A stretch of DNA of 20,000 nt from an uncultured virus (IMG/VR IMGVR_UViG_3300015607_002134) (IMGVR_UViG_3300015607_002134:54824-74823); one strand, 5' to 3'; positions 1,142 through 18,902 are shown, numbered from the stretch's first letter. Numbers and translations: made by a program. The notes: generated from the letters alone by a model not told the origin.

Positions 1142-1462
1142 ATGTCAAAACATACAAACAAACATTGGTTAAGAGAGAAAGAATTTATCTCTCTTAAAAG
1201 AGAATTGGATGAACTTTGGGACACTATTCCTGTCGTTAGATGGAGAAGAATTCCACACACAAGAGTTCATGAGATAAACGCTAGATTGCGTCATAAATTC
1301 TATAATGAATATCATGGTTGGTGTCATACTGCCCCAAAACATTATAGAAAAACATTAAATAGAATACAAAGAGCTAAGTCTAAACAAGTTCTTTATAAAG
1401 TCCTAAATGGTAAAGAAGTTTCTTTCGAGGATTGTTATAAAGGATGTAACTGGTATTGGTAA
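1142..1462 (+). CDS. Small basic hypothetical protein
   Basis: 106-aa K/R/H/W-rich ORF overlapping the next start. Confidence 0.7.
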   Translation: MSKHTNKHWLREKEFISLKRELDELWDTIPVVRWRRIPHTRVHEINARLRHKFYNEYHGWCHTAPKHYRKTLNRIQRAKSKQVLYKVLNGKEVSFEDCYKGCNWYW

Positions 1463-1743
1463 TGAAATTAATAATTATAAATAGTGGCAATAGAATTTCT
1501 ATTGACTTTGATTCAAAGGTTAAGATTAACTCTGGTACCTTACACTCTCTTAAAGAACTAGTAACTCTCAAAGATATTGAGAAAGAAGTTCGAGAGTATC
1601 TTGGAGTTGAAAATTGGAGAACTAGAGTTATGCCTGGTTTCGATTCAACAACTATACATACTGGTAGTGACGAGGAATATAATCGTATTAAAACTATTGT
1701 TAGAAGGGATAATATAATTGAAAAACTATTAGAAAATGATTGA
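1456..1743 (+). CDS. Hypothetical protein with C-terminal RDxxIxxLL motif
   Basis: Overlaps both neighbours; ends IVRRDNIIEKLLEND; the ATG at 1462 is a more likely start. Confidence 0.7.
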   Translation: MVMKLIIINSGNRISIDFDSKVKINSGTLHSLKELVTLKDIEKEVREYLGVENWRTRVMPGFDSTTIHTGSDEEYNRIKTIVRRDNIIEKLLEND

Positions 1744-2212
1744 TAAATTTGAGGGAGAAAATAGATTTTTATCTAATTTTTACCCATCTGAAATAACACA
1801 CGAAGGTATTGTTTATCCAACAAATGAACACTACTATGTTGCCATGAAAATTAATGAACCACAGTATATTACAATAGATGGTGAATTGAAAAATCTAGAT
1901 ATAAAAAGATCTAGAGTTTATGTCTCAAAAATTAAAACCGCAGGTGATGTTAAGAGACTTGGTAGAAAGTTAAAGGTCAGAGATGATTGGGATGATGTTA
2001 AATTATCCGTTATGGAATATGGGGTTAGACAAAAGTTTAACAAACATGAGGATCTTAAAAATATGTTACTCGATACGGGTGATGAAGAGTTAATTGAAGG
2101 TAACTGGTGGGGTGACACTTACTGGGGAGTATGTAATGGTAAGGGGGAAAATCACCTAGGTAAAATACTAATGAGAGTTAGAGAAGAGATTAGATGTCCA
2201 ACCTCTGTGTGA
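1736..2212 (+). CDS. NADAR (YbiA-like) family ADP-ribosyl/N-glycosidase
   Basis: FLSNFY, PTNEHYY, W..VK..VM...KF, LLDTG..ELIE, WGD.YWG, G.N.LGK.LM.VR motifs of NADAR. Confidence 0.92.
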   Translation: MIDKFEGENRFLSNFYPSEITHEGIVYPTNEHYYVAMKINEPQYITIDGELKNLDIKRSRVYVSKIKTAGDVKRLGRKLKVRDDWDDVKLSVMEYGVRQKFNKHEDLKNMLLDTGDEELIEGNWWGDTYWGVCNGKGENHLGKILMRVREEIRCPTSV

Positions 2213-2242
2213 TTTTCTTTTACCACTAGCTACCAGGCATAG

Positions 2243-2269
2243 TTTTGAGTTACAAATTTATTATCTTTG
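2243..2269 (+). promoter_or_regulatory. Bacteroidota-type promoter upstream of the methyltransferase operon
   Basis: TATCTTTG at 2262-2269 and TTTTG at 2243-2247, intergenic. Confidence 0.45.
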
Positions 2270-2334
2270 TATAGAAATGGACGACAATAAACTTAGTCAT
2301 ATATTAGTTATATAACCAATAAAATATTTTTTAA

Positions 2335-3315
2335 ATGAGTATAATTTCCTATTTTGGTGGTAAGTCAAGTAATGTGTTTATGAATTTTATAAACACTCGA
2401 ATACCAAAAGATGGTAGTATTAAAACCTATGTTGAACCATTTAGTGGAGCAATGGGTACATTCATGGATGATGATTCATTGAAATTTGATACTGTCATTT
2501 ATAATGATAAGAACAGACACCAAGTTAATCTATTTAAGTGTTGTTCAGAACCCGATAAGTTTATTCCCTATCTTGAAAATATAAAAAACGGTCTACTAAA
2601 GACATCTGAGACTGATCCACTTAAGAAGTGGGATTTCTATAAATCTATTTATAAAGATTATACTAAAAATGATTTTTTAGATAATAATAATTTCCAAATT
2701 GGTGATTTTGAAAAGGCTGCAATTTATGCTTTCCTTATTACATCTTCACATAATTCTGTTTATCCGAGAGGGGCAGGATTTAATGGATATAAAAAGGATA
2801 GAGATAAGTTAAAGTTGGAAGTACTTATTAATAAACTTAAAAAGAACACCTATACACAAAAGCTAAAATCTATTACAGAGTTCTCAAATATTGATTTTGA
2901 GGAACTAATTAAAAAGTATGACTCTGAAGATACATTTATGTATCTTGATCCTCCTTATGCTAGATTTAATGAAGATAAGGGAGATGATGATGCGAAGCGT
3001 TTATTTTGGTATGGTGCTGACTCTGATGGAGTTTTTGGTCCATCTTCACATAGAAGATTAATAGAATTATTGAAGAATACTAAGTGCAGATGGTCTCTAT
3101 CATACTACTATTTCCCATTATTGGATGAATTACTTCCTCGTGGTGAATATTACTGGGAACAGAAAGAAGTATTTAGAAGTTCTGCTCAAGGTGGTAATAA
3201 TCACCAATTAAAGGGTAAACAAGAAAAGGGTGTCGAACTTTTGATAATGAACTACGATCCATCTACTGGTAAGAAAACAAATTTAGCGCATGTGGATAGA
3301 CGAGTTGAAATCTAG
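2335..3315 (+). CDS. Dam-like (D12 class) DNA adenine N6-methyltransferase
   Basis: YFGGKS, YVEPFSG (motif I), IYND, YLDPPY (motif IV), terminal ELLIMNY. Confidence 0.92.
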   Translation: MSIISYFGGKSSNVFMNFINTRIPKDGSIKTYVEPFSGAMGTFMDDDSLKFDTVIYNDKNRHQVNLFKCCSEPDKFIPYLENIKNGLLKTSETDPLKKWDFYKSIYKDYTKNDFLDNNNFQIGDFEKAAIYAFLITSSHNSVYPRGAGFNGYKKDRDKLKLEVLINKLKKNTYTQKLKSITEFSNIDFEELIKKYDSEDTFMYLDPPYARFNEDKGDDDAKRLFWYGADSDGVFGPSSHRRLIELLKNTKCRWSLSYYYFPLLDELLPRGEYYWEQKEVFRSSAQGGNNHQLKGKQEKGVELLIMNYDPSTGKKTNLAHVDRRVEI

Positions 3316-4012
3316 TGATTTAGTCAATGTAATGCCTTACATGACTTTGAATAAGAATCTTAATAACTTTATTAAGATTCAATTTAGTATGGCTTACCAT
3401 GAACCGGATGAACTATTGAATAGAGATAAATTGATACATCTCGTTTCAAATGAGTTTAATATGGCAATATCGAATAAAATAATGAAAGAGTTTAATTCAG
3501 TAAATGTCTTTGATTATATCGATAAAAGTGGTATTGGTGATATTCAAGTTTTACCATTAAATGATGTTATTAAAATAGCTGAGGAGTTTTACCATAAGAC
3601 AGATTCTTATAAGTATCTAATCACCAATGGTAATTTGGGTAGCTTTCTACAAGATTCTTCAAGATTTACCATTACACCAGTCACTAATAGTATATCAAAT
3701 TGGTCATCACTTACATATAATATTGGTAAGTTTGGAGATTTGGATGTTTGGATTGATCCAGTTCTTGAATGGAAAGATACAACAGGCTATCTTTTCGATG
3801 GAATCAACATTAACATTGGTGATTTCACAGCAACGATCAGTAATCAAGCAACATTTACACCAAGATTGATATTTGACTTAGAGATTGATTTTAGGATTAT
3901 TAATCCTAAATTATTTTTTGTAGTAACTGATAAGACATCAAAGTCATATTCAAGATACAAATCTCTACTAAGAGATATTAAAATTAATGATGTTTTAGAT
4001 GAAGAAAATTAG
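3290..4012 (+). CDS. Degenerate gp23-type major capsid protein-like protein with C-terminal RDIKINDVL motif
   Basis: LVSNEFNMAISNKIM, YLITNGNLGSFL, IGKFGDLDVWIDP and ATFTPRL follow the order of T4 gp23 C-terminal elements (recalled sequence); only 240 aa. Confidence 0.55.
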   Translation: MWIDELKSSDLVNVMPYMTLNKNLNNFIKIQFSMAYHEPDELLNRDKLIHLVSNEFNMAISNKIMKEFNSVNVFDYIDKSGIGDIQVLPLNDVIKIAEEFYHKTDSYKYLITNGNLGSFLQDSSRFTITPVTNSISNWSSLTYNIGKFGDLDVWIDPVLEWKDTTGYLFDGININIGDFTATISNQATFTPRLIFDLEIDFRIINPKLFFVVTDKTSKSYSRYKSLLRDIKINDVLDEEN

Positions 4013-4256
4013 AAATTCATATTTAAGAATAAAACAGAGTGGTGATAATGACCCGAATTCCGGAGTATTTGACCCAGATGTATCTGCTGATATTGATGGT
4101 AATGTGAGGGTTGATGGATTGGTATTGGTTGATCGTAAAACTGGAAAAGATTGGCAAATCTCTATATATGATGGTGAAATAATGATAGAACCACTTGAGA
4201 AAGAGGAGAGAAGAGATTATAGAATTAAAAAGATAATAACAGATGGAAGTAAGTAA
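3999..4256 (+). CDS. Hypothetical protein with C-terminal RDYRIKKII motif
   Basis: Overlapping operon ORF; GLVLVDRKTGKDWQISIYDG beta-meander resembles short tail-fibre modules. Confidence 0.7.
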   Translation: MKKIRNSYLRIKQSGDNDPNSGVFDPDVSADIDGNVRVDGLVLVDRKTGKDWQISIYDGEIMIEPLEKEERRDYRIKKIITDGSK

Positions 4257-4626
4257 GCATTTGGATAAAATTAAATCAATGGGATTTGATATATCAATTG
4301 ATTGGAATAGTGAAATTAATATTTGGTATAATGCTAATGATATTTACCCAGCTACTGCTTATTCTGCTGAGATATTACATTGTGCATTCTATCAGAGTAA
4401 AACATCGGGATATTCATTTGAACAAGTTATAGAGTCTTGTTGCGATGCTTTCTATGCTTGGTATAATAAAAATGTTGATACTATTAAGTATTTTGATAAA
4501 AACTATAATGCAGATGCACTTGAAAAGTTAGAAAGTTGTACACTTGGTGATATTACTAAACAAATTGCAAGAGATTTGAATCTTGTTGATGTGTTGGAAG
4601 TATTTGCTAAATACGATAGAGATTAA
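4243..4626 (+). CDS. Hypothetical protein with near-terminal RDLNLVDVL motif
   Basis: Last ORF of the + strand operon; stop overlaps the convergent gene. Confidence 0.7.
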   Translation: MEVSKHLDKIKSMGFDISIDWNSEINIWYNANDIYPATAYSAEILHCAFYQSKTSGYSFEQVIESCCDAFYAWYNKNVDTIKYFDKNYNADALEKLESCTLGDITKQIARDLNLVDVLEVFAKYDRD

Positions 4627-5105: not shown

Positions 5106-5139
5106 AATTTGTAGTAATTTTATAATCTATATATTAAGA

Positions 5140-5832
5140 TTAGGATTTGATTTTTTCATCTAAAATCCTTGCAATGTTTGATCCTATAAAGAAGTGTATA
5201 TTTCTTAAAGTATCTGATTCAACAGTTTGAATATCATCCATGAACTTGAATTGGAATTTGTATTTGTCTTGCTCTTCATCAGTCTCTCTATCAACCTTTG
5301 ATACAGATACATCCATTTTATAGTTGTTATTGACATCAACTTCAAAGTCGAATGTGGTTTTATCACAAGGGGTTGTTTTGAACTTTGGTTCATATTTTAC
5401 ATCAAAGATTGAATAATCAGTAATCTTTTCTCTTCTCATATAATAGTTTAAGAACATAGCGGGTGCCTCGATGAAATCACTTAAAATTTGAAGGTCCTCT
5501 CCAAAGTTTCTTGATTCTATTATATCTTCAATTTTCTGTTTCATATCAATAATATTATCAAAGTCTATTCTATGGTAAACACAGTTTATGTCATATAGAT
5601 ATAAGAATGATTCTTCAATTATGTATCTCTTTTCTAAGTCGGATTTGAATATGAACTTAGTATGTATTATAGATGAGTCTTCAACAGATAATCCATGTAT
5701 TGAAATAACAAGTTTGTAAAAGTCTTCATCCTCAGATAGCTCATATACTGTTTCTACTGATTTAACGACACCTTCTTCCTCTTCAAATACTTCCTTAAAA
5801 GCTTGCTCTATTTCCGATATTTTTATTTTCAT
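5140..5832 (-). CDS. Acidic hypothetical protein
   Basis: 230-aa ORF, ATGA-coupled to the upstream nucleotidyltransferase. Confidence 0.75.
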   Translation of the reverse strand: MKIKISEIEQAFKEVFEEEEGVVKSVETVYELSEDEDFYKLVISIHGLSVEDSSIIHTKFIFKSDLEKRYIIEESFLYLYDINCVYHRIDFDNIIDMKQKIEDIIESRNFGEDLQILSDFIEAPAMFLNYYMRREKITDYSIFDVKYEPKFKTTPCDKTTFDFEVDVNNNYKMDVSVSKVDRETDEEQDKYKFQFKFMDDIQTVESDTLRNIHFFIGSNIARILDEKIKS

Positions 5833-6911
5833 ATTCCAAAATCATCTTTTATATCTTTTGTAACATCACCTAGTGTGTTAAAAGTTTCAGTTCTATTATT
5901 CTCAAAGTCACCGAAAACTGTATTGCCATAGTTTTGTCTTTCTACTCTAATTGGTGATTCCTTATAATATACCTTTATAAAGTCAGAAAATCCTTCTGAA
6001 TAACCACAAGAACCATATTCTATATCTATATAGTCTTTATTCTCATCGTAATTATATCTTAAGCTCGTAGACCAACTTTCGTCACTTTGTTTATCTAACT
6101 CTTTACTTATATTATCTAATGTGTATAGAAACTCAAGCAACTCGTCTGTATTTGATTCAAATTGCTTATCATATGCGTATTTCTTTAACTCCATTATTTT
6201 ACCAATATATCCATTTCTTCTTAGTAGTTTGAAAACCAAATTACCAATTGAGTACTCACCACTCTCACTTTCCAATCCACTCTTTCTAAGGTCTTTTATT
6301 TTCTTCCAAACCTTATCGATTTTTTCTTTGAACGACTCATATTTATCCTCATCTACTTGTTCTTCTATATCATCAACCTTATCCATTATGGATGTTGCTT
6401 TTTTAGAAATCATCTTTTCGTCTGGTTCGAAGTCCACTTTTTCTGGCTTTTTAATCCACTTGTTCTTCATCAATGAGAATACACCACCCATTCTTCCAGA
6501 CTTTATACCTTCTTTCAAGTCATCTTCGTTCTGAATTGCCACTTCAACTTCATATCCCTTAATTGTTATGTCATGTCCTGAATTCCACATCTTCTTGGCA
6601 TAGTCACATAGTTGTTCAACTAGTTCTAGGTTTTCATCAACATCTCTATAATCGATTATGATGTGTAAATCGTAGTCAGAGTATTGTTCTGACCAGTTAT
6701 AGTTACATAATGATCCACATAGTGCAATATCAATAACATCTGCTTCTATATCAGTTGATTCATAGAAGTCTTGTGCTATTTGTAATAAGTCTGTTCTAAC
6801 CTCTTCTGATAATTCAAAGTTATCCCATAACTTAGGATTTAAGTTGTCTTTAATATAAAATGACTTTATAGGATCTAAGTCAGATTCCTTGAATTCGTAG
6901 AATTTTAACAT
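5829..6911 (-). CDS. Pol-beta superfamily nucleotidyltransferase
   Basis: hGS (LCGS) ... SDYDLH signature plus distal EVEV strand; N-terminus MLKFYEFKES. Confidence 0.8.
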   Translation of the reverse strand: MLKFYEFKESDLDPIKSFYIKDNLNPKLWDNFELSEEVRTDLLQIAQDFYESTDIEADVIDIALCGSLCNYNWSEQYSDYDLHIIIDYRDVDENLELVEQLCDYAKKMWNSGHDITIKGYEVEVAIQNEDDLKEGIKSGRMGGVFSLMKNKWIKKPEKVDFEPDEKMISKKATSIMDKVDDIEEQVDEDKYESFKEKIDKVWKKIKDLRKSGLESESGEYSIGNLVFKLLRRNGYIGKIMELKKYAYDKQFESNTDELLEFLYTLDNISKELDKQSDESWSTSLRYNYDENKDYIDIEYGSCGYSEGFSDFIKVYYKESPIRVERQNYGNTVFGDFENNRTETFNTLGDVTKDIKDDFGI

Positions 6912-6915
6912 AGAG

Positions 6916-6925: not shown

Positions 6926-6934
6926 AATGTTAAT

Positions 6935-7408
6935 TTATTTCTTGGTGAAGTATTTCTCTCTTAGCTCTTTTTTAGCTTTTGTGTAATACCAAGCATCAAT
7001 AGCGTGTTGCTTTTGACCAAAGAAAAAGTTTAATAATTTGCTAAACTTCAAACCAAATTTATTTAACTTACCATCTATTTGTAGTTTACCAACACTTGCT
7101 GATACTGACATATTTTTCTCAGTGAATGTTGTATTCTCCTCTGCTGTTAACATATCTTCCAATATTTCACCATTTACATTCCAAGCCAAATCAAGTGAGT
7201 ATGCAATTTCATAAAACGCATGTCCTATTGCAGCTGAGAATCCATCTATTAGTCTCCACCAAAATTGGAAAAACGCATACCATTTTTTGAAAGTTATTGA
7301 TAACCATATCGAATAACCTAGTGAGTAAGCAGTACCTATTGTAAGCATTAAACAACTTACTATAATTGCCCATATTAGAGCCCATAAACCTTGAAATAGT
7401 TCTTTCAT
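6935..7408 (-). CDS. Membrane protein with N-terminal hydrophobic helices
   Basis: Likely start ATG 7408 (MKELFQGLWALIWAIIVSCLML...), just after the upstream stop; hydrophobic/aromatic N-terminal half. Confidence 0.7.
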   Translation of the reverse strand: MKELFQGLWALIWAIIVSCLMLTIGTAYSLGYSIWLSITFKKWYAFFQFWWRLIDGFSAAIGHAFYEIAYSLDLAWNVNGEILEDMLTAEENTTFTEKNMSVSASVGKLQIDGKLNKFGLKFSKLLNFFFGQKQHAIDAWYYTKAKKELREKYFTKK

Positions 7409-7409
7409 A

Positions 7410-7667
7410 TTATTTATTTTTAAATTTTTTTGATGTTCCCGGAATAACTCTATCAGATGACATTGTTCCGGTGAACTCATAGTCAAAGTAGTCATCTACC
7501 TTTATTTTGAATTTTTTATTACCATCTGTTACATAAGCGCACCTAACGGTTGGGTCATAGTTTAGCTCTTTTATGATTAATGGATCACCATCTTTGTCAT
7601 ATATGGTTTCACCAACTAATGTTTCTCTAAGAACCATTTCGAATATATTTGTCTTATACTTTGCCAT
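7410..7667 (-). CDS. Small hypothetical protein
   Basis: 85-aa ORF; variant AAAATATATA box at 7724-7733. Confidence 0.65.
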   Translation of the reverse strand: MAKYKTNIFEMVLRETLVGETIYDKDGDPLIIKELNYDPTVRCAYVTDGNKKFKIKVDDYFDYEFTGTMSSDRVIPGTSKKFKNK

Positions 7668-7732
7668 AATTTATTAAGTCATATTTTGTAGATGTGTTTT
7701 AATCTCTGGCCAGAAATATTATCTATATATTT

Positions 7733-8440
7733 TTAGTTCAATCTTAAACTTTCTATTATACCATCTTTAATTGCCTGATTTAAATATGGTTTTGTACTAT
7801 TTGCTATCACATCTCTAAGTGGTTGTGTGTATCCATCTATAAATAGGCTAATCTCACTTTTAACGGATGTTAATAAGTCGAATGAATATAATTGACCTAT
7901 ATTAATTAATACATATGACTTTGCTTTAGATATAATATTAGTTCGTCTATCAATTCCTTCTTGTATTGATTCTTCTAATGTGTAATACTTTACTGTATTT
8001 TTTATAAGACCAATACTATTATCACTAAGGTACCATCTAGATGATTGATTTCTATACTGCACTAAACCATTCGAATCTCTTATATATTCTCTGGTTTCAT
8101 CTAATATTAAATTTGAATATGTGTGACCATCATAGAACTCATAATATTCAACTTTTGTTAATTCCCCAAATATTATTGTTCTTTTTTTGTGAAATCCAAG
8201 TATATCATAATCTATAATTGATGGATCTATGTAGGATCCTATCTTAAATTTCTTTTCAGTTATTTCCTCTCCATAATTATACCCATTACTTATATAAAAA
8301 GCTTGATACTTATAAAGTGGTAAATTTGGATTATTAATATCACAAACAAGTACTAAATCGTCTTCATTGTAGGAACCACCTTCAAAAACAATTAAGTTTG
8401 GATTACTCATCATTTGTTGATTTTTAGTTAAATTTATCAT
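7733..8440 (-). CDS. Hypothetical protein in the tail-fibre cluster
   Basis: 235-aa Tyr-rich ORF co-oriented with structural genes. Confidence 0.7.
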   Translation of the reverse strand: MINLTKNQQMMSNPNLIVFEGGSYNEDDLVLVCDINNPNLPLYKYQAFYISNGYNYGEEITEKKFKIGSYIDPSIIDYDILGFHKKRTIIFGELTKVEYYEFYDGHTYSNLILDETREYIRDSNGLVQYRNQSSRWYLSDNSIGLIKNTVKYYTLEESIQEGIDRRTNIISKAKSYVLINIGQLYSFDLLTSVKSEISLFIDGYTQPLRDVIANSTKPYLNQAIKDGIIESLRLN

Positions 8441-8442
8441 AA

Positions 8443-8610
8443 TTAGCTAATTATAATTGTTATTGATTCACCTCCAGCGGATGTGAAATCATAGTTAGGT
8501 CCATCAAGTGAATATGATATTATACTACCATTTACTGTCTGTGGAGTTTCTAATATAAATTCAGTTGTATCACCTGAAGCTGTTCCTCCGAAAATTATAT
8601 CATCTATCAT
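8443..8610 (-). CDS. 55-aa protein absent from the ORF track
   Basis: MIDDIIFGGTASGDTTEFILETPQTVNGSIISYSLDGPNYDFTSAGGESITIIIS; ATGA overlap with the 704-aa gene stop; fills the gap almost exactly. Confidence 0.7.
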   Translation of the reverse strand: MIDDIIFGGTASGDTTEFILETPQTVNGSIISYSLDGPNYDFTSAGGESITIIIS

Positions 8611-10721: not shown

Positions 10722-11545
10722 TATGTTTTATTTATTTTTAATGTTAGTGTAACTTGAGTTACTATACTTGATGACTCCACATTAAAGGCAATTATATCAC
10801 CTTCTGTTATTGTAGTGGACCATGCAGTTAATGTGTTATTGTTGTTTTTTATCTGAGATGATAAAGTTGGTTTGTCGATACCACATATCGAATCTGATAA
10901 AGTTGGTGGATAATTGGCGTATGTATCTTTCCAAACGTCAATTACAATACTTCCAGTTGCTGTAGACAATAATTCCCATCCAGTTATAACCCCTGAGTAT
11001 GGTACAGTTACATACGACTTAACTCCAGTTGTTATTGGAATAATTCCATTTCCTATACCAATACCTATTTGTCCTTTATTAGCAGCTGAGCTTTCACCAT
11101 TGTTGATGCACATCCAATATACATTACCAGTTATTGCGGGATTCGAATTTGAATTTATTCTGAATCCATTCTCCGTTTGGTTATCAATGGTCCAAGATCT
11201 AGATGAGTTGCCTATTACTGCGGTTGAGTAGCTAGATCCACTAAATGGTGTACTAAATGTGACTGTGTATAGTTTAGGATCACCACTAAATGATGCTCCT
11301 GATATAAATCCAGCTTTTGTTCCTTGATTTATTAATTTATTGTCAATGTATGATATTATTTTATCCGCTGTCCAAATGTCACTTGATGCTGTCCCAAAAT
11401 CATTAAATAAATATCCTGATGAATTTATCGAGTTTGTACCAAATATTAATATCTCACTTTGAGTGAATGATGAATTATTTGTTCCACCATTCTCAATTGA
11501 AACAAGACCATCTATTTGTTTAGCATTAATTTTACCATTTGCCAT
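10721..11545 (-). CDS. Putative tail fibre / structural protein
   Basis: NGGTN repeat motif, VTFSTPF...T.NGF.I (H-type-lectin/gp53-like) segment and C-terminal beta-sandwich. Confidence 0.7.
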   Translation of the reverse strand: MANGKINAKQIDGLVSIENGGTNNSSFTQSEILIFGTNSINSSGYLFNDFGTASSDIWTADKIISYIDNKLINQGTKAGFISGASFSGDPKLYTVTFSTPFSGSSYSTAVIGNSSRSWTIDNQTENGFRINSNSNPAITGNVYWMCINNGESSAANKGQIGIGIGNGIIPITTGVKSYVTVPYSGVITGWELLSTATGSIVIDVWKDTYANYPPTLSDSICGIDKPTLSSQIKNNNNTLTAWSTTITEGDIIAFNVESSSIVTQVTLTLKINKT

Positions 11546-11593
11546 AACTTATATATTAAAATATAAGTCTACGATTTTAATATATAAGTTATG
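11543..11593. repeat. Perfect 20-bp inverted repeat forming a divergent promoter pair
   Basis: CATAACTTATATATTAAAAT (11543-11562) and ATTTTAATATATAAGTTATG (11574-11593), 11-bp spacer; each arm contains TTAATATATA and the start codon. Confidence 0.9.
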
Positions 11594-11926
11594 AAATTGA
11601 AAAAATATAATGAATTTATAATTGAGTCAAACTCTAATGGTTTTAATTCATTGGGTGAATGGGTTGAGTCATTAATAGATGATGATTATGTTAAAAACAT
11701 CATATCGAGATATACTAAGGATATAGATCCAGATATTGAACTTTCAAATGCTATAAACATCTTAGACGAGAGAACCAAGTCTGAGATAAAATCACAGATA
11801 GATAATTATCTAGAAAATGGTATCGAAGAAAAAGATCCCACTATCGTAGCATCAACCGATATAGAAGAATTAACCGAGGCAGAAATCACTATGGCTGGTA
11901 AAGGAATATTTAGTTCATTCCTTTGA
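11591..11926 (+). CDS. Acidic putative internal head protein, probably 3'-truncated
   Basis: N-terminus MKLKKYNEFIIES; ends abruptly at GKGIFSSFL overlapping an opposite-strand fragment. Confidence 0.6.
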   Translation: MKLKKYNEFIIESNSNGFNSLGEWVESLIDDDYVKNIISRYTKDIDPDIELSNAINILDERTKSEIKSQIDNYLENGIEEKDPTIVASTDIEELTEAEITMAGKGIFSSFL

Positions 11927-12202
11927 TGGACTTATAACAACACCTATATGTGACTCAAAGTAACAACCATTGGCTATCTCTTTCCCAGTTGAAATAACTG
12001 GCGCACCAGGATGCCAAGGTACGGTTTCTATCTTCTTTCTAACAACCTTATATCCATGTAGATCCAACTCAAATGCTATCCTCTCACACTCAATATATGC
12101 TGATTTGTTATCACCGAAGTGTTTTGATGATGTCATTATATCTTTCAGAACTGACCCACCATTTATCTCTAAATCAAGTATAATTGGTTTAACTACTACC
12201 TT
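11915..12202 (-). pseudogene. Internal fragment of a protein-coding gene
   Basis: Protein-like frame KVVVKPIILDLEINGGSVLKDIMTSSKHFG...KIETVPWHP...YFESHIGV runs 22 codons upstream of the internal ATG with no ATG at its 5' end, and ends abruptly. Confidence 0.5.
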
Positions 12203-12245
12203 TTATAGTTACTTCCTCTTTTATAAATTTTGAAAAATCTTTCAT
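12189..12245 (-). pseudogene. 18-codon N-terminal gene remnant (MKDFSKFIKEEVTIKGSS)
   Basis: ATGA overlap with the 12242 stop; capsid-targeting-like N-terminus followed by an early stop. Confidence 0.4.
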
Positions 12246-12766
12246 TTCCTGTTCCTAACCTCACCAGTCCAAGTAGATGCTGCTCCACTTGATATGGATA
12301 TATATTTTATCACACCATCAAATGGTAGGACAAAGGGGGTTGTATTGAATGGTAATCCATCTCCACTTCTTAGATAGATGTTAGATACATTGTTGCTTGC
12401 TCTGGCCCCAGTTAATGTGGCTGATGATATGTAGTCTATTGTCTTAGATGCGCTCCATACATCACTTGAACTCGTTCCAGAGTCATTGAAGACTTTTCCG
12501 GATGATATAACGGAACTTGTTGTTGAATTAACTATTAATATTTGAGAAGCTGTAAATGATACATTCCCTAATCCACCTCTATTCAGAGGTAGTGATCCTG
12601 TCCAACCTACTGTGAAAGAGTGTGTCGTACCAGATGTAGCTATTGTTAGAGTTACATTTGAGTCGTTATTAGATGTAATGTATTGATCAGAAAAGGTTAA
12701 CCCATTTATGGTCTTTACCACCGTGTTGTCAACTATTTGTTTACCATTAATCCTACCGTTAGACAT
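12242..12766 (-). CDS. Tail-fibre-like paralogue of 10721..11545, probably C-terminally truncated
   Basis: MSNGRINGKQI vs MANGKINAKQI; SFTASQILI..SSG..FND.GT.SSD.W.A.K.I.YI is shared. Confidence 0.7.
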   Translation of the reverse strand: MSNGRINGKQIVDNTVVKTINGLTFSDQYITSNNDSNVTLTIATSGTTHSFTVGWTGSLPLNRGGLGNVSFTASQILIVNSTTSSVISSGKVFNDSGTSSSDVWSASKTIDYISSATLTGARASNNVSNIYLRSGDGLPFNTTPFVLPFDGVIKYISISSGAASTWTGEVRNRK

Positions 12767-12793: not shown

Positions 12794-12835
12794 TATATAT
12801 TAAAAATGTTGCGGTAAAAGAACATTTAATATATA
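12794..12835. promoter_or_regulatory. Second divergent pair of TTAATATATA boxes
   Basis: TATATATTAAAAATGTT...AACATTTAATATATA near-perfect inverted repeat between divergent genes. Confidence 0.65.
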
Positions 12836-12859
12836 AATTGGGTAAAAAACAAAAACCAA

Positions 12860-14197: not shown

Positions 14198-14198
14198 T

Positions 14199-14411
14199 AT
14201 GAAAGAAATTAATATGAGTATTAAGAGTGTTAAAGTAGAGGCTACCACAAGACATGTTAGAGCTCAGTGGACCGCACAAATGGCTAGTGATATAGCATCA
14301 TTGACATCAATTGATTTCGAGGCGGAGCTTAGAGCAATACTTAGACAGCAGAATAGAACAGAGAAGTTATCTAAAATTTTAAATTCAGTTAAACATTATA
14401 ATAGTTTTTAG
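14199..14411 (+). CDS. 70-aa gp23 major-capsid-like fragment with C-terminal RTEKLSKIL motif
   Basis: Likely start ATG 14199, just after the upstream stop; EINMSIKSVKVEATTRHVRAQWTAQMASDIASLTSIDFEAELRAIL matches the conserved gp23 segment EAKSRQLKAAYSIELAQDL...DADAELSGIL (recalled). Confidence 0.7.
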   Translation: MKEINMSIKSVKVEATTRHVRAQWTAQMASDIASLTSIDFEAELRAILRQQNRTEKLSKILNSVKHYNSF

Positions 14412-14423
14412 TTATAAATTTCC

Positions 14424-15650
14424 ATGAATGTAGTTGTTAATTGGAATGATGTTAATCGAACATCGATTCGTGAGAAGTTAAGTTATAAGAAAAACAGTCT
14501 TCAATTCTTACCACAGTGTATAGAGAATATATCAGACAATGATTTCTTTACCTTTAAGGGTAAGAAACTAAAAGTCGCATACGTTGTTGATATAGTTCAC
14601 AATTTAATATTAAAATATTATTTCAAAAAGGATAATCAATTTAGCTTATCAGCAGTTGTGTTGAAAGATAAGTATGGATATCTTTATAATTATTATATTG
14701 ACTATCTGGTTAGTAGAAATATCATTATGATGTTGGTTAACTATAAATCAGGTACTAGATCACGAATCTATGCATTGAATGAGTCTGTACTTAGAGGTAA
14801 GATTAAACGATATAGAAATTCTGATAAAGTATTACTTAAAAAGTATAAAAATAAGGTATCTCAGGTAGAAGAGGGTGGAATAGAGAACTCATTAATTGAT
14901 TCTGATGTTAAATCTAAATTAGTAGATGACTTATTTCATATCGAAATTGAATTTGATAGGTCTATATTCTATCTTGACTCACTTAAGAACGAAGATACTG
15001 ATATTTATAATCGAAATAAGTATAGTGTCGAGTGTATCAATGATAAACACATATTTTATCACTTTGATAATTATGGTAGAATGCACACTAATTTTACAAT
15101 ACTTAAATCTTTCATAAGAAAGAACTGTCTTTTGATAGATGGTAAACAAACTTGTGAGATTGATATTAAGAACAGCCAACCATTGTTCTTATCTAAACTA
15201 ATTGAAGATAGTCATACTAAGTGGGTGAATGATGATGAGTTACAGTTATTTAAGTTCTTAACCACAACTGGTAAATATTACCAATATATAATGACTGAAT
15301 TGGGTATAACAAACAAGGGAGATGCCAAAGAACTGACATATAAGGTTTTATTTGGTAGGAACGCGAAGAATAGTAAGCCTGATGCTTTATTTTCGAGTAT
15401 TTTCCCAACTATACATAATTTTATAAAGCTTTATAAGAAAGAAATGGGTGACTATAAAATTTTAGCATATGAGTTACAGAAGGCAGAATCAAATTTAATT
15501 TTCAATAAAATCATTAGACAAATAATGACACTTTATCCAGAGATAAAGATGGTGACGGTACATGATAGTATTATTGTCCCGATGGAGGATAAAGATAGAG
15601 TTTCAGCTATTTTTAATTCTAAACTATATGAAGAATTTGGAATAATATAA
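14424..15650 (+). CDS. Minimal family-A polymerase-like protein (TV-Pol-like) with probable N-terminal winged-HTH
   Basis: GRMHT; motif A EIDIKNSQP; motif B K...YKVLFG; LQKAES; motif C TVHDS; no exonuclease domain recognisable. Confidence 0.7.
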   Translation: MNVVVNWNDVNRTSIREKLSYKKNSLQFLPQCIENISDNDFFTFKGKKLKVAYVVDIVHNLILKYYFKKDNQFSLSAVVLKDKYGYLYNYYIDYLVSRNIIMMLVNYKSGTRSRIYALNESVLRGKIKRYRNSDKVLLKKYKNKVSQVEEGGIENSLIDSDVKSKLVDDLFHIEIEFDRSIFYLDSLKNEDTDIYNRNKYSVECINDKHIFYHFDNYGRMHTNFTILKSFIRKNCLLIDGKQTCEIDIKNSQPLFLSKLIEDSHTKWVNDDELQLFKFLTTTGKYYQYIMTELGITNKGDAKELTYKVLFGRNAKNSKPDALFSSIFPTIHNFIKLYKKEMGDYKILAYELQKAESNLIFNKIIRQIMTLYPEIKMVTVHDSIIVPMEDKDRVSAIFNSKLYEEFGII

Positions 15651-15661
15651 TTATATATACC

Positions 15662-15823
15662 ATGATGAAAACTTTTTATTTAAAACAAAAATCTAATAAA
15701 AATGAGATAATCACCAGAATTGAAGCAGTTTCAATTGATCAGGCAATTAAGTTCTTTTCGAGAATCAAAAATCTTGCAAAGGATGACCTATTAAAGATAT
15801 TTATTGTAACTGATCAGTTATGA
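15662..15823 (+). CDS. 53-aa protein absent from the ORF track
   Basis: MMKTFYLKQKSNKNEIITRIEAVSIDQAIKFFSRIKNLAKDDLLKIFIVTDQL; fills the intergenic gap. Confidence 0.65.
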   Translation: MMKTFYLKQKSNKNEIITRIEAVSIDQAIKFFSRIKNLAKDDLLKIFIVTDQL

Positions 15824-15841
15824 TAAATTAATATATACTTA

Positions 15842-16378
15842 ATGATAGGTTTGGATCAAGCTACATCTTCTTATGTGATTATAACGTCTGATAAAATAGA
15901 CGATATTGAGACTGTTTTATACGGCAGAGACTATTCTATTATCCCAATCAAAGAATTTTATAACGGTGATTATAAGAACTCAATCATATCATATGGTAGA
16001 GTTGATAATGATAATTTAAGAAGAGATGTCCTTTTCTTACTTGATAAGTTTAACTTCAACTCAGCAATCATAAAATATCATGGAGAAAGTGTTATTAAGA
16101 GAATTAATAGAGATGGTTCTGAAGTTCCTCTTGATTTAGTTATGTATAATACTGATTTCAACAAACCTTCTTATTTATACAATGGATATTCATTCTCTTT
16201 TAATGAGAAAAAGAGATACTACTTTCCTTCTAAGAAAGAAGATATTAAAAAGGGTATGATTGTTGAGTTTTTTACAAATAATAAATGGGTTGAAAAACAA
16301 GTTTCCAACCCAGAATTAGAATATGAGAAGATGTATAAGCTACTTATTAAGTATAATAAGTTAAGAATTGCTATATAA
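15842..16378 (+). CDS. Hypothetical protein
   Basis: 178-aa ORF with TTAATATATA 4 nt upstream. Confidence 0.75.
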   Translation: MIGLDQATSSYVIITSDKIDDIETVLYGRDYSIIPIKEFYNGDYKNSIISYGRVDNDNLRRDVLFLLDKFNFNSAIIKYHGESVIKRINRDGSEVPLDLVMYNTDFNKPSYLYNGYSFSFNEKKRYYFPSKKEDIKKGMIVEFFTNNKWVEKQVSNPELEYEKMYKLLIKYNKLRIAI

Positions 16379-17162
16379 TTTCAAAATTAACAATATTCTT
16401 ATTGAATGAGAATTTAACAGGCTTCATGTAGAAGTCTTTCCTATTATTGAATACCATCAGACCTCCTTTATCTTTACCATTTTCAGCTCTTCCAACAATT
16501 ACCTTATTTGGTTTTATTAGTGGTGACTCTATTACAGCCATTCCTTGAATACTACCAATAATAGATGGGTCTTTTGGATTTGTTGGAGTTGTTACAAAAC
16601 TAGCTACTTTGAAATATTTTGATGATCCTTTACCAACTATAACAAATGTTGCTGGTCCAATCCTTCCATATGTTGCAATATAACCACTAGCTGACATTAT
16701 TCTAGTGATGATCTTTCTCGCATTTGATTGCAGATTATCATAATCACTATTATTTGGATCATTTGTTATTGTAACATTTGATATTTGTGGTGGTAGCGAG
16801 CTGTGATTTTTCAGAGAATCTAAAAAATTAATAACACTATTCCAAATACCCTGATATGATGAGAATTGTTTCTTATTAAATGATGACAGTGATGTTGTGA
16901 AAACTCTTGGAGCTATTATTCCTACACTACTCCCACCAAATCCAATCATTGATGATGGTTCTTCAATATTGACTCTTTTTGATAATTCCTCTTCTTTGTT
17001 ATCGAGAATGGCATCAAGAGTTATTTCTCTATTTTTGATTTCTCTCATTAATTCTTCATCAGAGGAATCAATCACATCTATATAATGAAGAGAAGATGAA
17101 TCACTTATTGAATCATCTTCATTATAGTTGCATATTAATTCTAAATCTTCCCTACTTATCAT
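16371..17162 (-). CDS. Degenerate gp23 capsid-like domain with N-terminal REITLDAIL motif
   Basis: RKIITRIMSASGYIATYGRIGPATFVIVG...IIGSIQGMAVIESP...VIVGR...GGL parallels gp23 KALLFQI..EIARQTGRGEGNFIIAS...FAGVLGG..VYID...FTVGYKG...AGI (recalled). Confidence 0.6.
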   Translation of the reverse strand: MISREDLELICNYNEDDSISDSSSLHYIDVIDSSDEELMREIKNREITLDAILDNKEEELSKRVNIEEPSSMIGFGGSSVGIIAPRVFTTSLSSFNKKQFSSYQGIWNSVINFLDSLKNHSSLPPQISNVTITNDPNNSDYDNLQSNARKIITRIMSASGYIATYGRIGPATFVIVGKGSSKYFKVASFVTTPTNPKDPSIIGSIQGMAVIESPLIKPNKVIVGRAENGKDKGGLMVFNNRKDFYMKPVKFSFNKNIVNFEII

Positions 17163-17910
17163 ATTTGTTGACCATTCCTATTTTTTGGGAACTCATTGCT
17201 ATATGACGACTAAGTTCATCATTTGTCATTTTAGCTGAATTGTTTAATATTTGAAGGTTTCTTTGATACCATTTCATATCTGGTTGTTCTTTTGCATGAT
17301 ATAAGTGATAACATCTTGCTCTCAATTCTGTCCATTTTAGGAATTTGTGAACTTTTATTGTTTGAAAGTCATCTTCACCACCCCATCCGATGAAATCTTC
17401 ATTCCATCCGCCTATTTTCATAATAGACTCTTTTCGGAACATTGCTATTCCACCAGAGATGTTAATTTTTTGATTGTCAGTTTCTCCTCTTCCAGGTCTT
17501 GATATTTGTAATATTTGATTGAAATCCATATTACTTTCTTGTTGTTCTAAATCAACAACTGTGTGATATGGACTAACCATTTCATATTCTTGTAATGCCT
17601 TAAGACCATTGATGAAATCATTTGGATTCATTATTAAATCTGAGTCTCCAAAAACAATAAGGGGAGCTGTTGAGTATTTAATTGCTATATTGAATGCCCA
17701 TGATCTGTTATATGGCATATCTGATTTCACGAAAATGTGTTTTGCTCTTAAATTAAGGTTTTCAATTTTTGAGTGTGTGTCTTGTTCAATTAGTAGTACT
17801 TCCACACCGTTGAATCCATTTATCCATTCGAGTACTCTTTTAAGATTCTGTAATCTATCCATCCTATGTCTATATCCTATTACATAGGTAAATGCGTATG
17901 CTTGATTCAT
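17152..17910 (-). CDS. Glycosyltransferase (GT2/GT7 galactosyltransferase-like, GT-A fold)
   Basis: YNRSWAFN, DxD (FGDSD), GGWNEDFIGWGGEDD, YHLYH; likely start ATG 17910. Confidence 0.88.
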   Translation of the reverse strand: MNQAYAFTYVIGYRHRMDRLQNLKRVLEWINGFNGVEVLLIEQDTHSKIENLNLRAKHIFVKSDMPYNRSWAFNIAIKYSTAPLIVFGDSDLIMNPNDFINGLKALQEYEMVSPYHTVVDLEQQESNMDFNQILQISRPGRGETDNQKINISGGIAMFRKESIMKIGGWNEDFIGWGGEDDFQTIKVHKFLKWTELRARCYHLYHAKEQPDMKWYQRNLQILNNSAKMTNDELSRHIAMSSQKIGMVNKYDK

Positions 17911-17960
17911 TAAATAATATAGTTTTTTATTTATAAAAAAAATCATTTGAAAGTTGTGGA

Positions 17961-17983
17961 ATTTGGCAAAATGATTATATTTG
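17961..17983 (+). promoter_or_regulatory. Bacteroidota-type promoter
   Basis: TATATTTG at 17976-17983, 12 nt before ATG 17996. Confidence 0.55.
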
Positions 17984-17995
17984 TATATATACAAT

Positions 17996-18400
17996 ATGAA
18001 GAAAATAGGTAGAATTGAAAAAGTAAGTTTCCCCGATTTGAGTATCGATTCAATTGATGCTAAGGTAGATACTGGTGCTTATGGCACCGCTCTTCATGTT
18101 AATGGTATACGAACAAGGAATGGGAAACTTTCCTTTTGGGTAGATGATCCATCTTGTAGATTATACTTTGATAAGTATAAGGTTATTAACGTAAAAAGCT
18201 CTTTTGGTAAAACACAAAAGAGATATTCAATAATGACAAGAATTAAGGTTGGTGATTCCACATATAAGATATATGTATCTCTAACTAATAGAAAGGATAT
18301 GAAATATCCCGTTTTGATTGGTAGAAGGTTTCTATATAAGTTCCACTATATAGTAGATGTAAGAAAAAAACATATTAATGATAGAGCTAAAAAAGTGTAA
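17996..18400 (+). CDS. RimB/RimK-associated retropepsin-like aspartic protease (often labelled 'ATP-dependent Zn protease')
   Basis: IGRIE.V.FPDL, AKVDTGAY.TALH, VKSS.G..Q.R, SLTNR..M.YPVLIGR.FL. Confidence 0.85.
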   Translation: MKKIGRIEKVSFPDLSIDSIDAKVDTGAYGTALHVNGIRTRNGKLSFWVDDPSCRLYFDKYKVINVKSSFGKTQKRYSIMTRIKVGDSTYKIYVSLTNRKDMKYPVLIGRRFLYKFHYIVDVRKKHINDRAKKV

Positions 18401-18902
18401 TTTCATCACTGGTGACCCAAGGTCGGTTTCGTTCGGGGTTCATAGTGTTTTATCCTTCTTAGAATTAGAAGGTCGAAATATAATGCTTTTATGTAAACCC
18501 AAGACAATTGATACTTCAAGTAGCTTAAAGTACATCTGGAATGTTAAGAAGGAGTTCACTGATTTCTTTTCATTTAAGAAACTACTCAAAGATAATTCTG
18601 CATTATTTAGAATTGATTTACTTGTTGTAGACCTATGGAGTCTGAGAAATATACCTATTGAGTATAAGCAGGCTCTTGATGAAACAGGTATACAATATAT
18701 TATACTATCGAAACAGTATCACTACACATCATCTGAGGACATTGGCGACTTTCATATTCAAAATGAATCTGATGGTACTTTTAACTCAAAATATACAATT
18801 ACAGATAAGGTTAGTGGTTGGTCTTCATCCCTTGAAGATTTGAAGAAGTCTTATATCAGAGACAAGAGAATAGATGGCATTATAGGAGACGAAGAAATCT
18901 AA
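18378..18902 (+). CDS. Degenerate RecA/P-loop-like protein with C-terminal RDKRIDGII motif
   Basis: NFITGDPRSVS at the Walker A position without GK[S/T]; IDLLVVD resembles Walker B. Confidence 0.5.
   Translation: MIELKKCNFITGDPRSVSFGVHSVLSFLELEGRNIMLLCKPKTIDTSSSLKYIWNVKKEFTDFFSFKKLLKDNSALFRIDLLVVDLWSLRNIPIEYKQALDETGIQYIILSKQYHYTSSEDIGDFHIQNESDGTFNSKYTITDKVSGWSSSLEDLKKSYIRDKRIDGIIGDEEI

Follow-up and report, generated by a model that had tools for sequence, protein, structure and literature searches.

Encapsulin cargo-loading peptides are short and C-terminal and send unrelated cargo inside an HK97-fold shell, the ssrA tag and the C-terminal ClpX-binding peptide of SspB are portable and hand cargo to a Clp unfoldase, and large DNA viruses such as poxviruses and giant viruses have expanded Ankyrin/PRANC (F-box-like) and similar adaptor families, in which a variable target-binding body ends in a conserved handle that serves a degradation machine. 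Phage T4 possesses a capsid targeting sequence (CTS) that is N-terminal and is cleaved off in the prohead. One study describes the T-even CTS as the sole shared part of diverse, fast-evolving small phage proteins (PMC3012670), and according to another the T4 proteins gp43, gp55 and gp33 carry interchangeable hydrophobic-and-acidic C-terminal epitopes on flexible linkers, which dock on the sliding clamp (PMC2988020).

Here we analyse a 20,000-nt window that closes a 74.8-kb contig from a huge Bacteroidota phage. According to Pfam matches this phage has a T4-type (gp20-type) portal and a gp23-type capsid protein. It is compared here with its 642-kb relative LR756502.1 and with further genomes. 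A previous sequence-only reading had proposed that seven dissimilar proteins of the window share a short tag. Our data suggest that this is a portable helical tag of early proteins, which probably docks on one common reader. Our literature search found no paper on it.

The tag shares several properties with the T-even CTS: it is a short terminal peptide, it is the only shared part of diverse small proteins, and it occurs in phages of the gp23/gp20 type. However, the T4 sequence is N-terminal, whereas the tag is C-terminal, marks about 20% of all proteins and belongs for the most part to transcription units that have host-type promoters. Judged by position it is not a CTS of the T4 type, given that 172 of the 201 strong sites lie at the C-terminus and that the window contains five C-terminal sites and one near an N-terminus. 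With its h-D-x-h-h core the tag is similar to the T4 clamp-binding motif, but a clamp epitope is contradicted by the family-B DNA polymerase piece of LR756502.1, which ends in ...MDIFGGSGF (LSVVMDIFGGSGF), and by the absence of sigma-like and replication proteins from the tagged ORFs. None of the annotated replication or transcription proteins carries the tag, and none of the seven tagged ORFs of at least 200 aa has a Pfam match; a search for the gp45 C-terminal family gave no match, and neither did its control. Clp degrons are likewise portable C-terminal peptides, and the tagged phages have ClpC and ClpP paralogues of their own; unlike those degrons and the SspB peptide, which are not known to share any likeness with it in sequence, the tag appears helical and one-faced and is sometimes internal. 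PRANC handles fold into domains of about 40-50 residues and dock on host ubiquitin ligases, whereas the tag is a helix of nine residues and belongs to a virus of bacteria. Encapsulin peptides have a different consensus and conformation, and the argument from promoter class against a capsid destination (see below) applies to them as well.

Consensus, position and enrichment of the tag

In the 90 ORFs called on the whole 74.8-kb contig, the pattern RD..[IL]..[ILV][ILF] occurs six times, always within 15 residues of the C-terminus, compared to means of 0.35 occurrences in total and 0.03 at the C-terminus in the control of 40 shuffles. The same pattern is found 81 times in LR756502.1, 60 of them C-terminal (shuffle means 5.1 and 0.50). 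An unbiased pattern search among C-terminal 16-mers returned R...l..l in 193 of 933, where 18.6 were expected. Positions left free in the search pattern are also conserved: of the 95 ORFs defined by the regular expression, 60 have K at position 4 and 58 have N or D at position 6. The consensus in LR756502.1 reads R-[DEN]-x-K-[IL]-[ND]-x-[IL]-[LI]. A position matrix trained on this genome, with a threshold of 6.0 bits (the 99th centile of internal windows), defines a second and larger set, in which 196 of 975 ORFs (20%) are tagged at the C-terminal end, about 1% being expected at this threshold. The tag is present on about 30% of the proteins below 150 aa in the clade. Terminal enrichment above shuffles and conservation among orthologues, on which the sequence-only reading had made its proposal depend, were both observed.

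The tag would form a helix of about two and a half turns, in which only positions 3 and 7 are variable. The conserved residues R1, D2, K4, I5, N6, I8 and L9 fall on one helix face, with 3 and 7 opposite, a pattern that, as read from the residues, would fit docking. The sequence upstream holds almost no information (0.14-0.71 bits per position). Acidic residues do follow the motif, as had been claimed, but they are in part a by-product of the overlapping start codon of the next gene, whose ATG begins 1-2 nt past the tag in 43 of 146 cases. Besides the 172 C-terminal sites of at least 12 bits, 26 are internal and three N-terminal; a free C-terminus is therefore not required, because these make up about 15% of strong sites, and this would be unusual for a classical Clp degron. 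Among the 95 tagged ORFs a single one (DUF6011) exceeded the Pfam cut-off, with a match outside the tag, and Pfam and PHROGs searches on the window proteins returned no profile match covering the tag, in agreement with the earlier statement that no named family describes it.

Tagged proteins in the window

All seven peptides reported earlier are present in the translations, at the coordinates given for them. Five of them are C-terminal tags by our measure (p95, p240, p85, p174 and p65), whereas the peptide of p263 is internal and that of p127 lies just below the threshold. The reported closeness to the C-terminus was confirmed, with three residues after the motif in p95, four in p240, five each in p85 and p174, and nine each in p127 and p65. 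The intact enzymes, i.e. NADAR, the D12 methyltransferase, the glycosyltransferase and the retropepsin-like Zn_protease, lack the tag at their ends, as had been noted.

The 93-aa orphan p95 (1462..1743, + strand), for which no Pfam or PHROG family was found, bears the tag RDNIIEKLL at 1705-1731 (18.2 bits), followed by END and the stop; its orthologue in LR756502.1 ends in KRDNIIENILR and the stop. A second orphan, p85 (85 aa; 3999..4256, +), bears RDYRIKKII at 4212-4238 (18.6 bits), with KRDFKIKKVL and, directly before the stop, KREFRINKVIS in its orthologues. In p127 (4243..4626, +) the tag RDLNLVDVL at 4570-4596 is doubtful, because it scores 5.9 bits against the threshold of 6.0 and because no orthologue was found in the two relatives compared (L001 and L002).

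Three carriers are related to the capsid protein. The protein p240 (3290..4012, +), with the tag RDIKINDVL at 3971-3997 (19.7 bits), is a paralogue of the C-terminal half of the gp23-like major capsid protein: its residues 103-195 align with residues 435-535 of the contig's own capsid protein (E 3e-12), and its orthologues end in QRDIKIDNVLDEED and QRDIKIDTLLDGSES. A second paralogue of this half is p263 (16371..17162, - strand), whose residues 149-236 align with residues 417-511 of the phage's own capsid protein (E 7e-11). Its tag REITLDAIL (17004-17030; 13.3 bits) begins at residue 47 of 263, toward the N-terminus, and orthologues retain NRNLALDVILEDK and NRQNAINSILDED at the equivalent position. 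The microprotein p65 (14214..14411, +) consists of a capsid-protein snippet (Pfam Gp23, E 5.6e-8, profile positions 136-193; PHROG 138, major head protein) and the variant tag RTEKLSKIL at 14355-14381 (12.1 bits). BLASTP gave no match between p65 and the phage's own capsid protein; its positional orthologues end in FRKDKIRKILDSI and RKESINKIFKTKKHDN, each followed by the stop.

The remaining carrier, p174 (18378..18902, +; tag RDKRIDGII at 18858-18884, 16.6 bits), has a body with a RecA/KaiC-like fold, in which we recognise no P-loop by our own reading of the sequence. Among its 13 homologues, R161, D162 and I165 are invariant in an alignment of 12 sequences. Foldseek relates its AF2 model (pLDDT 81) to RadA/RecA/KaiC cores (TMq up to 0.54). 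In this model the last helix spans residues 152-165 and continues into the tag, after which the confidence falls; the first half of the tag is thus predicted to extend the last helix of the fold and would not be a free linker appendage in this protein.

Portability and distribution among genomes

After removal of the tag, the 95 proteins of the smaller set fall into 92 BLASTP clusters and the 196 of the larger set into 184 phmmer clusters. Only nine of the 196 tag-less bodies match any untagged ORF, namely the capsid protein (3), ClpC (2), methyltransferases and others. The capsid-derived bodies comprise the C-terminal half, the N-terminal region and a 34-residue snippet, and those derived from ClpC are snippets of the M-domain and of D2. 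The view of the tag as a portable short linear motif on dissimilar proteins is thus borne out by bodies of different origin, by orthologues that keep the tag, and by C-terminal, internal and N-terminal copies. Our study demonstrates that it is selected as a peptide: codons within the tag follow genome usage, and in the 83 of 196 tagged genes without a closely following gene the tags are as strong as elsewhere (median 17.3 versus 18.0 bits, p 0.22).

The tag varies among genomes. ORFs passing the matrix number 196 of 975 in LR756502.1 and 160 of 930 in LR756504.1, but only 12 of 1037 in LR756501.1, at a threshold passed by 1% of internal windows. LR756504.1 carries a variant of the form R-K-x-K-I-..., and LR756501.1 no tag, neither of which belonged to the earlier reading. 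The tag evolves as a unit between clades, position 2 being D, E or N in LR756502.1 but K in LR756504.1. When the canonical RD.K form was counted by a strict DNA proxy, the search gave 26 and 33 matches in two 640-kb genomes and only two in a 436-kb contig rated 95% complete, and from these uneven densities it follows that the tag's form or its use varies within the clade.

Promoter classes and a second, N-terminal tag

Host-type promoters, which resemble the Bacteroidetes sigma-A type (TTTG, about 20 nt, TAnnTTTG), precede most tagged genes, a relationship that is new here. The other promoter type is a palindromic TATATATA box, behind which the capsid, portal, terminase and sheath genes are located. 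At least one tagged gene is found in 31 of 63 units with TTTG...TAnnTTTG versus 19 of 206 with the TATATATA box (Fisher p 4e-11). Counted by gene, 67 of 222 in host-type units are tagged versus 26 of 428 in TATATATA units, the classes being assigned by motif alone, with 93 of the 196 tagged genes in no assigned unit and 26 in the other class. By analogy with other phages, tagged genes are presumably expressed mainly early, given their host-type promoters.

Four of the five C-terminal tags in the window are inside host-type units. One such box (TAnnTTTG; 2240..2270, +) lies upstream of the operon methyltransferase-p240-p85-p127. Another (17950..17992, +) lies upstream of Zn_protease-p174 and is overlapped by a palindromic TATATATA box, which, read on the minus strand, precedes glycosyltransferase-p263. 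The unit p106-p95-NADAR is assigned only tentatively to the nearest upstream host-type box (585..619, +), because this is about 520 nt upstream of p106.

A second tag, likewise new here, occurs behind the head/tail promoter type and is N-terminal: M-K-H-L-K-x-Y/F-x-E-S (MKHLKKYNES-like) is found on 81 of 975 ORFs, 67-68 of the 81 in units with the promoter of the head genes. It overlaps with the C-terminal tag in one of the 81 when the 95 ORFs defined by the regular expression are considered, and in three when the 196 defined by the matrix are.

Alternative explanations for the tag

The conservation of the tag could in principle reside in the nucleic acid, with its 27 nt serving as the translation-initiation region or promoter of the next gene and the peptide as a by-product. 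The next gene does lie within 10 nt in 102 of 177 small tagged genes versus 176 of 495 untagged ones, its ATG often starts 1-2 nt past the tag, and ATA and TTA codons are slightly in excess at position 8. We nevertheless regard this as extremely improbable: synonymous codons are otherwise genome-like (all six Leu codons are used, and AGA, AGG and CGT for Arg), the I/L, D/E/N and K/R exchanges alter the first or second codon base, tags are equally strong in genes without a close follower and also occur internally and N-terminally, and 42 of 54 matches in a six-frame count lie within seven codons of the stop in their own frame. It is also very unlikely that the carriers form a single, very divergent superfamily with the C-terminal helix as its sole recognisable conserved part. 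Most tagged bodies are orphans, all but one of 95 staying below the Pfam cut-off, and many tagged genes stand in tandem arrays, but separate origins can be demonstrated for some of them (those related to the capsid protein, to ClpC or to DNA methyltransferase, and the one with the RecA-like fold), and N-terminal and internal copies speak against common descent as well.

Two further explanations accept a functional peptide, and both seem rather unlikely to us. On the one hand, the tag might target small proteins to the capsid, loading them into the prohead for injection with the DNA as in T4: its carriers are small, diverse orphans like the T4 internal proteins, three of those in the window are related to the capsid protein, and portal and capsid protein are of T4 type. 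However, the tagged genes lie mostly in host-type units, apart from those for capsid, portal, terminase and sheath, and it is the N-terminal tag, rarely combined with the C-terminal one, that occurs behind the head-gene promoters; by analogy it would be the better positional counterpart of the T4 sequence. This argument from promoters is an indirect one, and the genes of the T4 internal proteins are themselves transcribed early. On the other hand, the helix could have no common reader and serve, with about the same low probability, as a self-association element or stabilising cap, acting either inside each protein or between identical copies of it. Oligomers can be held together by short amphipathic helices, and in the p174 model the tag prolongs the last helix of the fold. 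Such a role hardly explains why nine residues, seven of them conserved on one face, are common to about 190 unrelated bodies with almost no information upstream, and the D2 to K2 change in step between clades points to one co-evolving partner. Docking on one common reader therefore remains our preferred explanation.

Clp protease as a candidate reader

The phage Clp machinery comprises a ClpC-type ATPase without N-domain but with an M-domain and a VGF ClpP-docking loop, and ClpP paralogues. ClpP is present in LR756502.1, LR745206.1 and LR756504.1 and in all four IMG/VR relatives with a completeness of at least 89%, and the identity of the N-domain-less ClpC is at least 82% among its best 120 homologues. 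The three named tagged genomes have ClpP and the VGF-loop ClpC, whereas the tag-less LR756501.1 has neither (its Clp ATPase possesses the N-domain but no M-domain and no [ILV]GF loop), a comparison of one tag-less complete genome, the single negative, with two independent tagged lineages. Among the 975 ORFs of LR756502.1, 45 have a homologue in LR756504.1 and none in LR756501.1; these include two full-length ClpP genes and one shorter ClpP-like gene, and 42 further genes share this phyletic pattern of ClpP. The sequence-only reading had listed a protease/unfoldase and a phage compartment among the possible hubs; the phyletic pattern is a weak hint at the former, and the promoter class makes the latter less likely.

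Whichever reader it is, the conserved helix face would dock on it, and the early tagged proteins would share one fate or one place. Our first candidate, though of low probability and weakly supported, is the phage's own N-domain-less ClpC/ClpP, with a hub of the host as the next option. With Clp as the reader the tag may be a degron, by which early proteins would be kept short-lived and the removal of the whole early set would be timed. Alternatively, it may be the handle of 'bait plus handle' adaptors, which would deliver bound targets to destruction. Such baits are conceivable because pieces of the phage's own capsid protein, ClpC and DNA polymerase occur among the bodies and could bait host sensors or rival phages. 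A Clp reader would make the system a bacterial-virus counterpart of viral F-box-type adaptors, an analogy already drawn in the sequence-only reading. The full form of the proposal, a phage-encoded targeted proteolysis in which one in five proteins of a 640-kb phage is an early 'body plus handle' protein read by ClpC/ClpP, is somewhat more speculative still.

Implications for huge phages

Huge phages have small orphan genes by the hundred that resist annotation, and a label on a fifth of these suggests one shared fate or partner. The two tags sort this dark proteome into a C-terminal class at host-type promoters and an N-terminal class at the promoters of structural genes. If Clp is indeed the reader, this would be the first case in which a phage runs programmed proteolysis or an adaptor system on the scale of its proteome, and it would account for the presence of ClpC and ClpP in such phages, and the 'snippet plus tag' microproteins would represent a new kind of molecular mimic.

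Occurrence of the C-terminal tag

The C-terminal tag, a nine-residue helix of the form R-[DEN]-x-K-[IL]-[ND]-x-[IL]-[LI] (hereafter C-tag), is real, and its scale goes far beyond what could be seen from the window. Enrichment at C-termini over shuffled controls, the check proposed by the sequence-only reading, is confirmed both on the contig and in LR756502.1, our main comparison genome, where ORF calling over the whole record with a minimum length of 50 aa gave 975 ORFs. In the 90 contig ORFs the strict pattern RD..[IL]..[ILV][ILF] has six matches, none of them farther than 15 residues from the C-terminus, whereas shuffling yields 0.35 matches overall and 0.03 near the end; the corresponding figures for LR756502.1 are 81 matches, 60 of which are terminal, with shuffle values of 5.1 and 0.50. 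Position 4 is K in 60 of 95 carriers and position 6 is N or D in 58 of 95, although the pattern leaves both free. A pattern search blind to the motif recovered R...l..l in 193 of 933 C-terminal 16-mers, where 18.6 were expected. With an iterated position matrix and a threshold (6.0 bits) that 1% of internal windows exceed, 196 of the 975 LR756502.1 ORFs (20%) are tagged. By length, the tagged share is 78 of 253 at 50-100 aa, 71 of 240 at 100-150 aa and 6 of 153 from 300 aa upwards.

All seven peptides reported for the window were found in the translations where they had been placed, and the annotated enzymes indeed lack the motif at their ends. The matrix sustains five of the seven as C-terminal tags, on the proteins (named by their length) p95 (18.2 bits), p240 (19.7), p85 (18.6), p174 (16.6) and p65 (12.1), and an internal, N-proximal copy in p263 (13.3), but leaves p127 doubtful (5.9 bits against the threshold of 6.0). 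The literature that we searched, with subscription journals outside its coverage, holds no description of such a C-terminal tag in huge or jumbo phages. New here are the split between promoter classes, a second, N-terminal tag, the clade variants of the C-tag, the case against an explanation at nucleotide level, the microproteins that join a snippet to a tag, and the Clp lead.

Source phage and gene content

The contig (74,823 bases, about 31% G+C, the window being its final 20 kb) is a fragment of a huge Bacteroidota phage of the LR756502.1 kind. The closest relatives of the peptidase, methyltransferase, glycosyltransferase and several unknown genes of the window are found in uncultured huge phages: LR756502.1 (642 kb), LR745206.1 (635 kb), LR756504.1 (636 kb) and LR756501.1 (735 kb), and with the first two the contig shares gene order. 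Among the products of LR756502.1 are a T4-type portal, a gp23-type capsid protein, a terminase and a sheath; others carry type IX secretion domains and SprB repeats, an indication of a Bacteroidota host. A capsid gene identical to that of the contig lies on a 103-kb IMG/VR contig.

About 6 kb of the window (6935-12766) are missing in LR756502.1, where the neighbours p360 and p445 abut. This stretch encodes a 704-aa Thr/Ser-rich protein and two proteins starting with MANGKINAKQI and MSNGRINGKQI, one of which matches a virion-structural PHROG; it is probably a swapped tail-fibre cassette. A 408-aa protein at 14424-15650, 80% identical in LR756502.1, matched no family in Pfam or PHROG searches; its end stretch (...TVHDSIIVP...) may resemble polymerase motif C. 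The cluster at 17996-19998, composed of a Zn_protease (retropepsin-like, PF05618), the tagged RecA-fold p174 and an M28 peptidase, is conserved in both 640-kb relatives.

Portability and snippet microproteins

The sequence-only reading proposed that the tag is a portable motif on dissimilar proteins, and our data bear this out. Stripped of their tags, the 95 carriers fall into 92 BLASTP clusters and the 196 into 184 phmmer clusters; only one of the 95 has a Pfam match above the cut-off, and none of the seven tagged LR756502.1 ORFs of at least 200 aa matches Pfam at 1e-5. The bodies that can be placed, few in number, differ in origin, and the tag is therefore a portable module. Two of them, p240 (E 3e-12) and p263 (E 7e-11), are paralogous to the C-terminal half of the capsid protein that the phage itself encodes. 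The first part of the 65-residue p65 (14214-14411) is matched by the Gp23 profile, and its positional orthologues retain both the capsid snippet and a tag. p174 is predicted to have a RecA/KaiC-like core (pLDDT 81), in which no P-loop was seen on reading the sequence by eye. Conservation among orthologues likewise held: the tag is kept where the bodies share just 27-56% identity (tblastn), and the p174 family shows R161, D162 and I165 unchanged in all 12 aligned sequences.

As p65 does in the window, microproteins in LR756502.1 join a tag to a snippet of the capsid protein, of ClpC or of a family-B polymerase (277261-277446, 315773-316270, 320919-321134, 154346-154507 and 523510-523623). The capsid snippets comprise residues 513-546 (61 aa with the tag) and the N-terminal region, into which the tag is inserted (165 aa), and those of ClpC comprise the UVR stretch of its M-domain (71 aa) and a stretch of D2 (53 aa); a 49-aa frame of the same genome matches polymerase motifs.

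Selection on the peptide

Tagged genes often have the next gene close behind, its ATG beginning 1-2 nt past the tag in 43 of 146 cases, and ATA and TTA are in mild excess at tag position 8; both would be compatible with a signal read in the nucleotides. Synonymous choice inside the tag otherwise equals genome-wide usage: every Leu codon is present, and Arg is encoded by AGA, AGG or CGT in the proportions of the genome. The 83 of 196 tagged genes without a close follower carry equally strong tags (median 17.3 vs 18.0 bits, p 0.22), and strong sites (12 bits or more) also occur internally (26) and N-terminally (3); it is therefore the peptide that is under selection. The nearby ATG of the next gene accounts for part of the preference for D, K and N after the tag, and for part of the acidic residues described there.

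No more than two residues follow the tag in 138 of 196 carriers. Its variable positions are 3 and 7 only, and on a helix projection these lie on one side with the conserved positions opposite. We infer the mechanism of the tag from this pattern, which looks like a helix docking through one face. In the p174 model the tag starts within the last helix, and model confidence drops past residue 165. A membrane-targeting helix can be ruled out on sequence alone, since positions 2 and 6, and often the residues past the tag, are acidic or amides, and a ribosome-arrest peptide is ruled out by a distance to the stop codon that varies from 0 to 10 residues and by the internal copies. The presence of an Hsp70 and two J-proteins in LR756502.1 raised the possibility of a DnaK-binding motif, against which the acidic residues speak; such residues are disfavoured in DnaK-binding motifs. 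A protein at 20447-20917 of the contig and one at 86786-87487 of LR756502.1 end with a DUF6576-type motif (...LDTILDKIS..G..SLT..E..FL), matched by Pfam in the LR756502.1 protein only and read by eye in that of the contig; the first part of this motif has a likeness to the tag core (h-D-x-I-L-D).

Promoter-like motif classes and second tags

Two motifs are over-represented in LR756502.1 upstream regions. One, TTTG followed after a gap of about 20 nt by TAnnTTTG, corresponds to the established Bacteroidetes sigma-A promoter form (host-type); the other, the TATATATA class, is an [AT]ATATATA box 0-30 nt upstream of the start codon, found ahead of the capsid, portal, terminase and sheath genes. 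One or more tagged genes are present in 31 of 63 host-type units vs 19 of 206 [AT]ATATATA-type units (p 4e-11), or, counted by genes, 67 of 222 vs 26 of 428 are tagged, with 93 tagged genes unassignable to units.

Host-type boxes lie in the window at 585-619, 2240-2270, 17950-17992 and 18905-18941. Those at 2240-2270 and 17950-17992 precede the methyltransferase-p240-p85-p127 and Zn_protease-p174 genes, and the closest box upstream of p95 is likewise host-type. Boxes of the TATATATA type are found at 11579-11587, 12828-12836, 15652-15660 and 15830-15838, and on the minus strand at 5135, 6923, 11557 and 12801; the capsid-like p65 and p263 belong to units of this type. If genes behind host-type promoters are early here, as they are in other phages, the C-tag would mark early proteins, and the capsid would become a less likely destination of tagged proteins.

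A second tag, the N-terminal M-K-H-L-K-x-Y/F-x-E-S (wider form M-[KR]-[HY]-[LI]-[KR]-x-[FY]-x-[ES]), occurs in 81 of 975 LR756502.1 ORFs, against 1.0 in shuffles, and in 7 of 90 contig ORFs, among them 5797-6750, 7759-8184, 29515-30135, 31538-31996 and 45500-45973 of the contig. By the matrix the C-tag is present on only three of these 81 as well, and of the 78 others 67 lie in TATATATA units; rare overlap and promoter-class distribution thus indicate that the two tags mark different gene classes. The N-tag presumably resembles the T4 capsid targeting sequence. If the C-tag marks early proteins, the N-tag is the better counterpart of that sequence (PMC3012670). Genes with the N-tag are often arranged as tandem arrays, and two places of the window, 11591-11926 (MKLKKYNEFIIE) and the ORF that ends at 536, have weaker forms of it.

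In LR756501.1 an unbiased pattern search revealed an acidic-aromatic C-terminal tail, d-P-f-G-x-d-x-f, in about 40-50 proteins, against 6-12 expected; a narrow regular expression for this tail found no match, being too strict. The window ORF at 3-536 ends in a similar acidic D-P-F tail (...DIDDEDPFV).

Candidate readers

Candidates for a reader, the hypothetical common docking partner of the tag, were sought among 306 LR756502.1 ORFs of at least 200 aa. The genome encodes two ClpP paralogues (58607-59281 and 112095-112763), a shorter ClpP-like gene (364437-365003), an Hsp70, two J-proteins, an ankyrin protein and a ClpC-type ATPase (440544-442667) that lacks the N-domain and has a UVR-type M-domain and a VGF loop. 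The first 45 or so residues of this ClpC are of low complexity. Forty-five of the 975 ORFs, both ClpP genes and the ClpP-like gene included, have a homologue in the tagged LR756504.1 and none in the tag-less LR756501.1, whose Clp ATPase has a full N-domain and neither M-domain nor [ILV]GF loop. Each of the three complete genomes with the tag has ClpP, as does each of the four IMG/VR relatives of at least 89% completeness; three ClpP-negative IMG/VR contigs are 18-34% complete and hence uninformative. The IMG/VR scan yielded close relatives only (80 loci), with 60-100% capsid-protein identity over the best segment and at least 71% where the match spans at least 561 of 565 query residues, and so adds no new tag-less genome. 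Among the best 120 homologues listed, the N-domain-less ClpC is at least 82% identical, far more conserved than p174.

Clp may thus be regarded as a coherent lead, drawn from genome comparison with a single tag-less genome. A complex prediction for ClpC (17-row alignment) and p174 (12-row) scored 0.00 without controls and counts neither for nor against it. Phage G, another megaphage, reportedly encodes ClpP and ClpX and carries them in its virions (PMC12484599). The T4-type clamp-binding tail (PMC2988020) had suggested the sliding clamp as reader, but the polymerase piece ends in a different, T4-like tail and the clamp was dropped as the main idea; a search with the gp45 C-terminal family gave no match, nor did its control, so that absence cannot be read from it.

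Reach of the tag among relatives

LR756504.1 carries a variant of the same build whose second residue is K, R-K-x-[KIR]-I-[EDN]-x-L-[LI], in 160 of 930 ORFs, while the tag is absent from LR756501.1, where 12 of 1037 ORFs correspond to the false-positive rate. By a strict DNA proxy the canonical form has 26 matches in LR756502.1, 33 in LR745206.1, 1 in LR756501.1 and 3 in LR756504.1, and 0-8 in each of ten IMG/VR relatives. The form of the tag drifts as a unit within the clade, which is what would be expected if the tag co-evolves with one reader.
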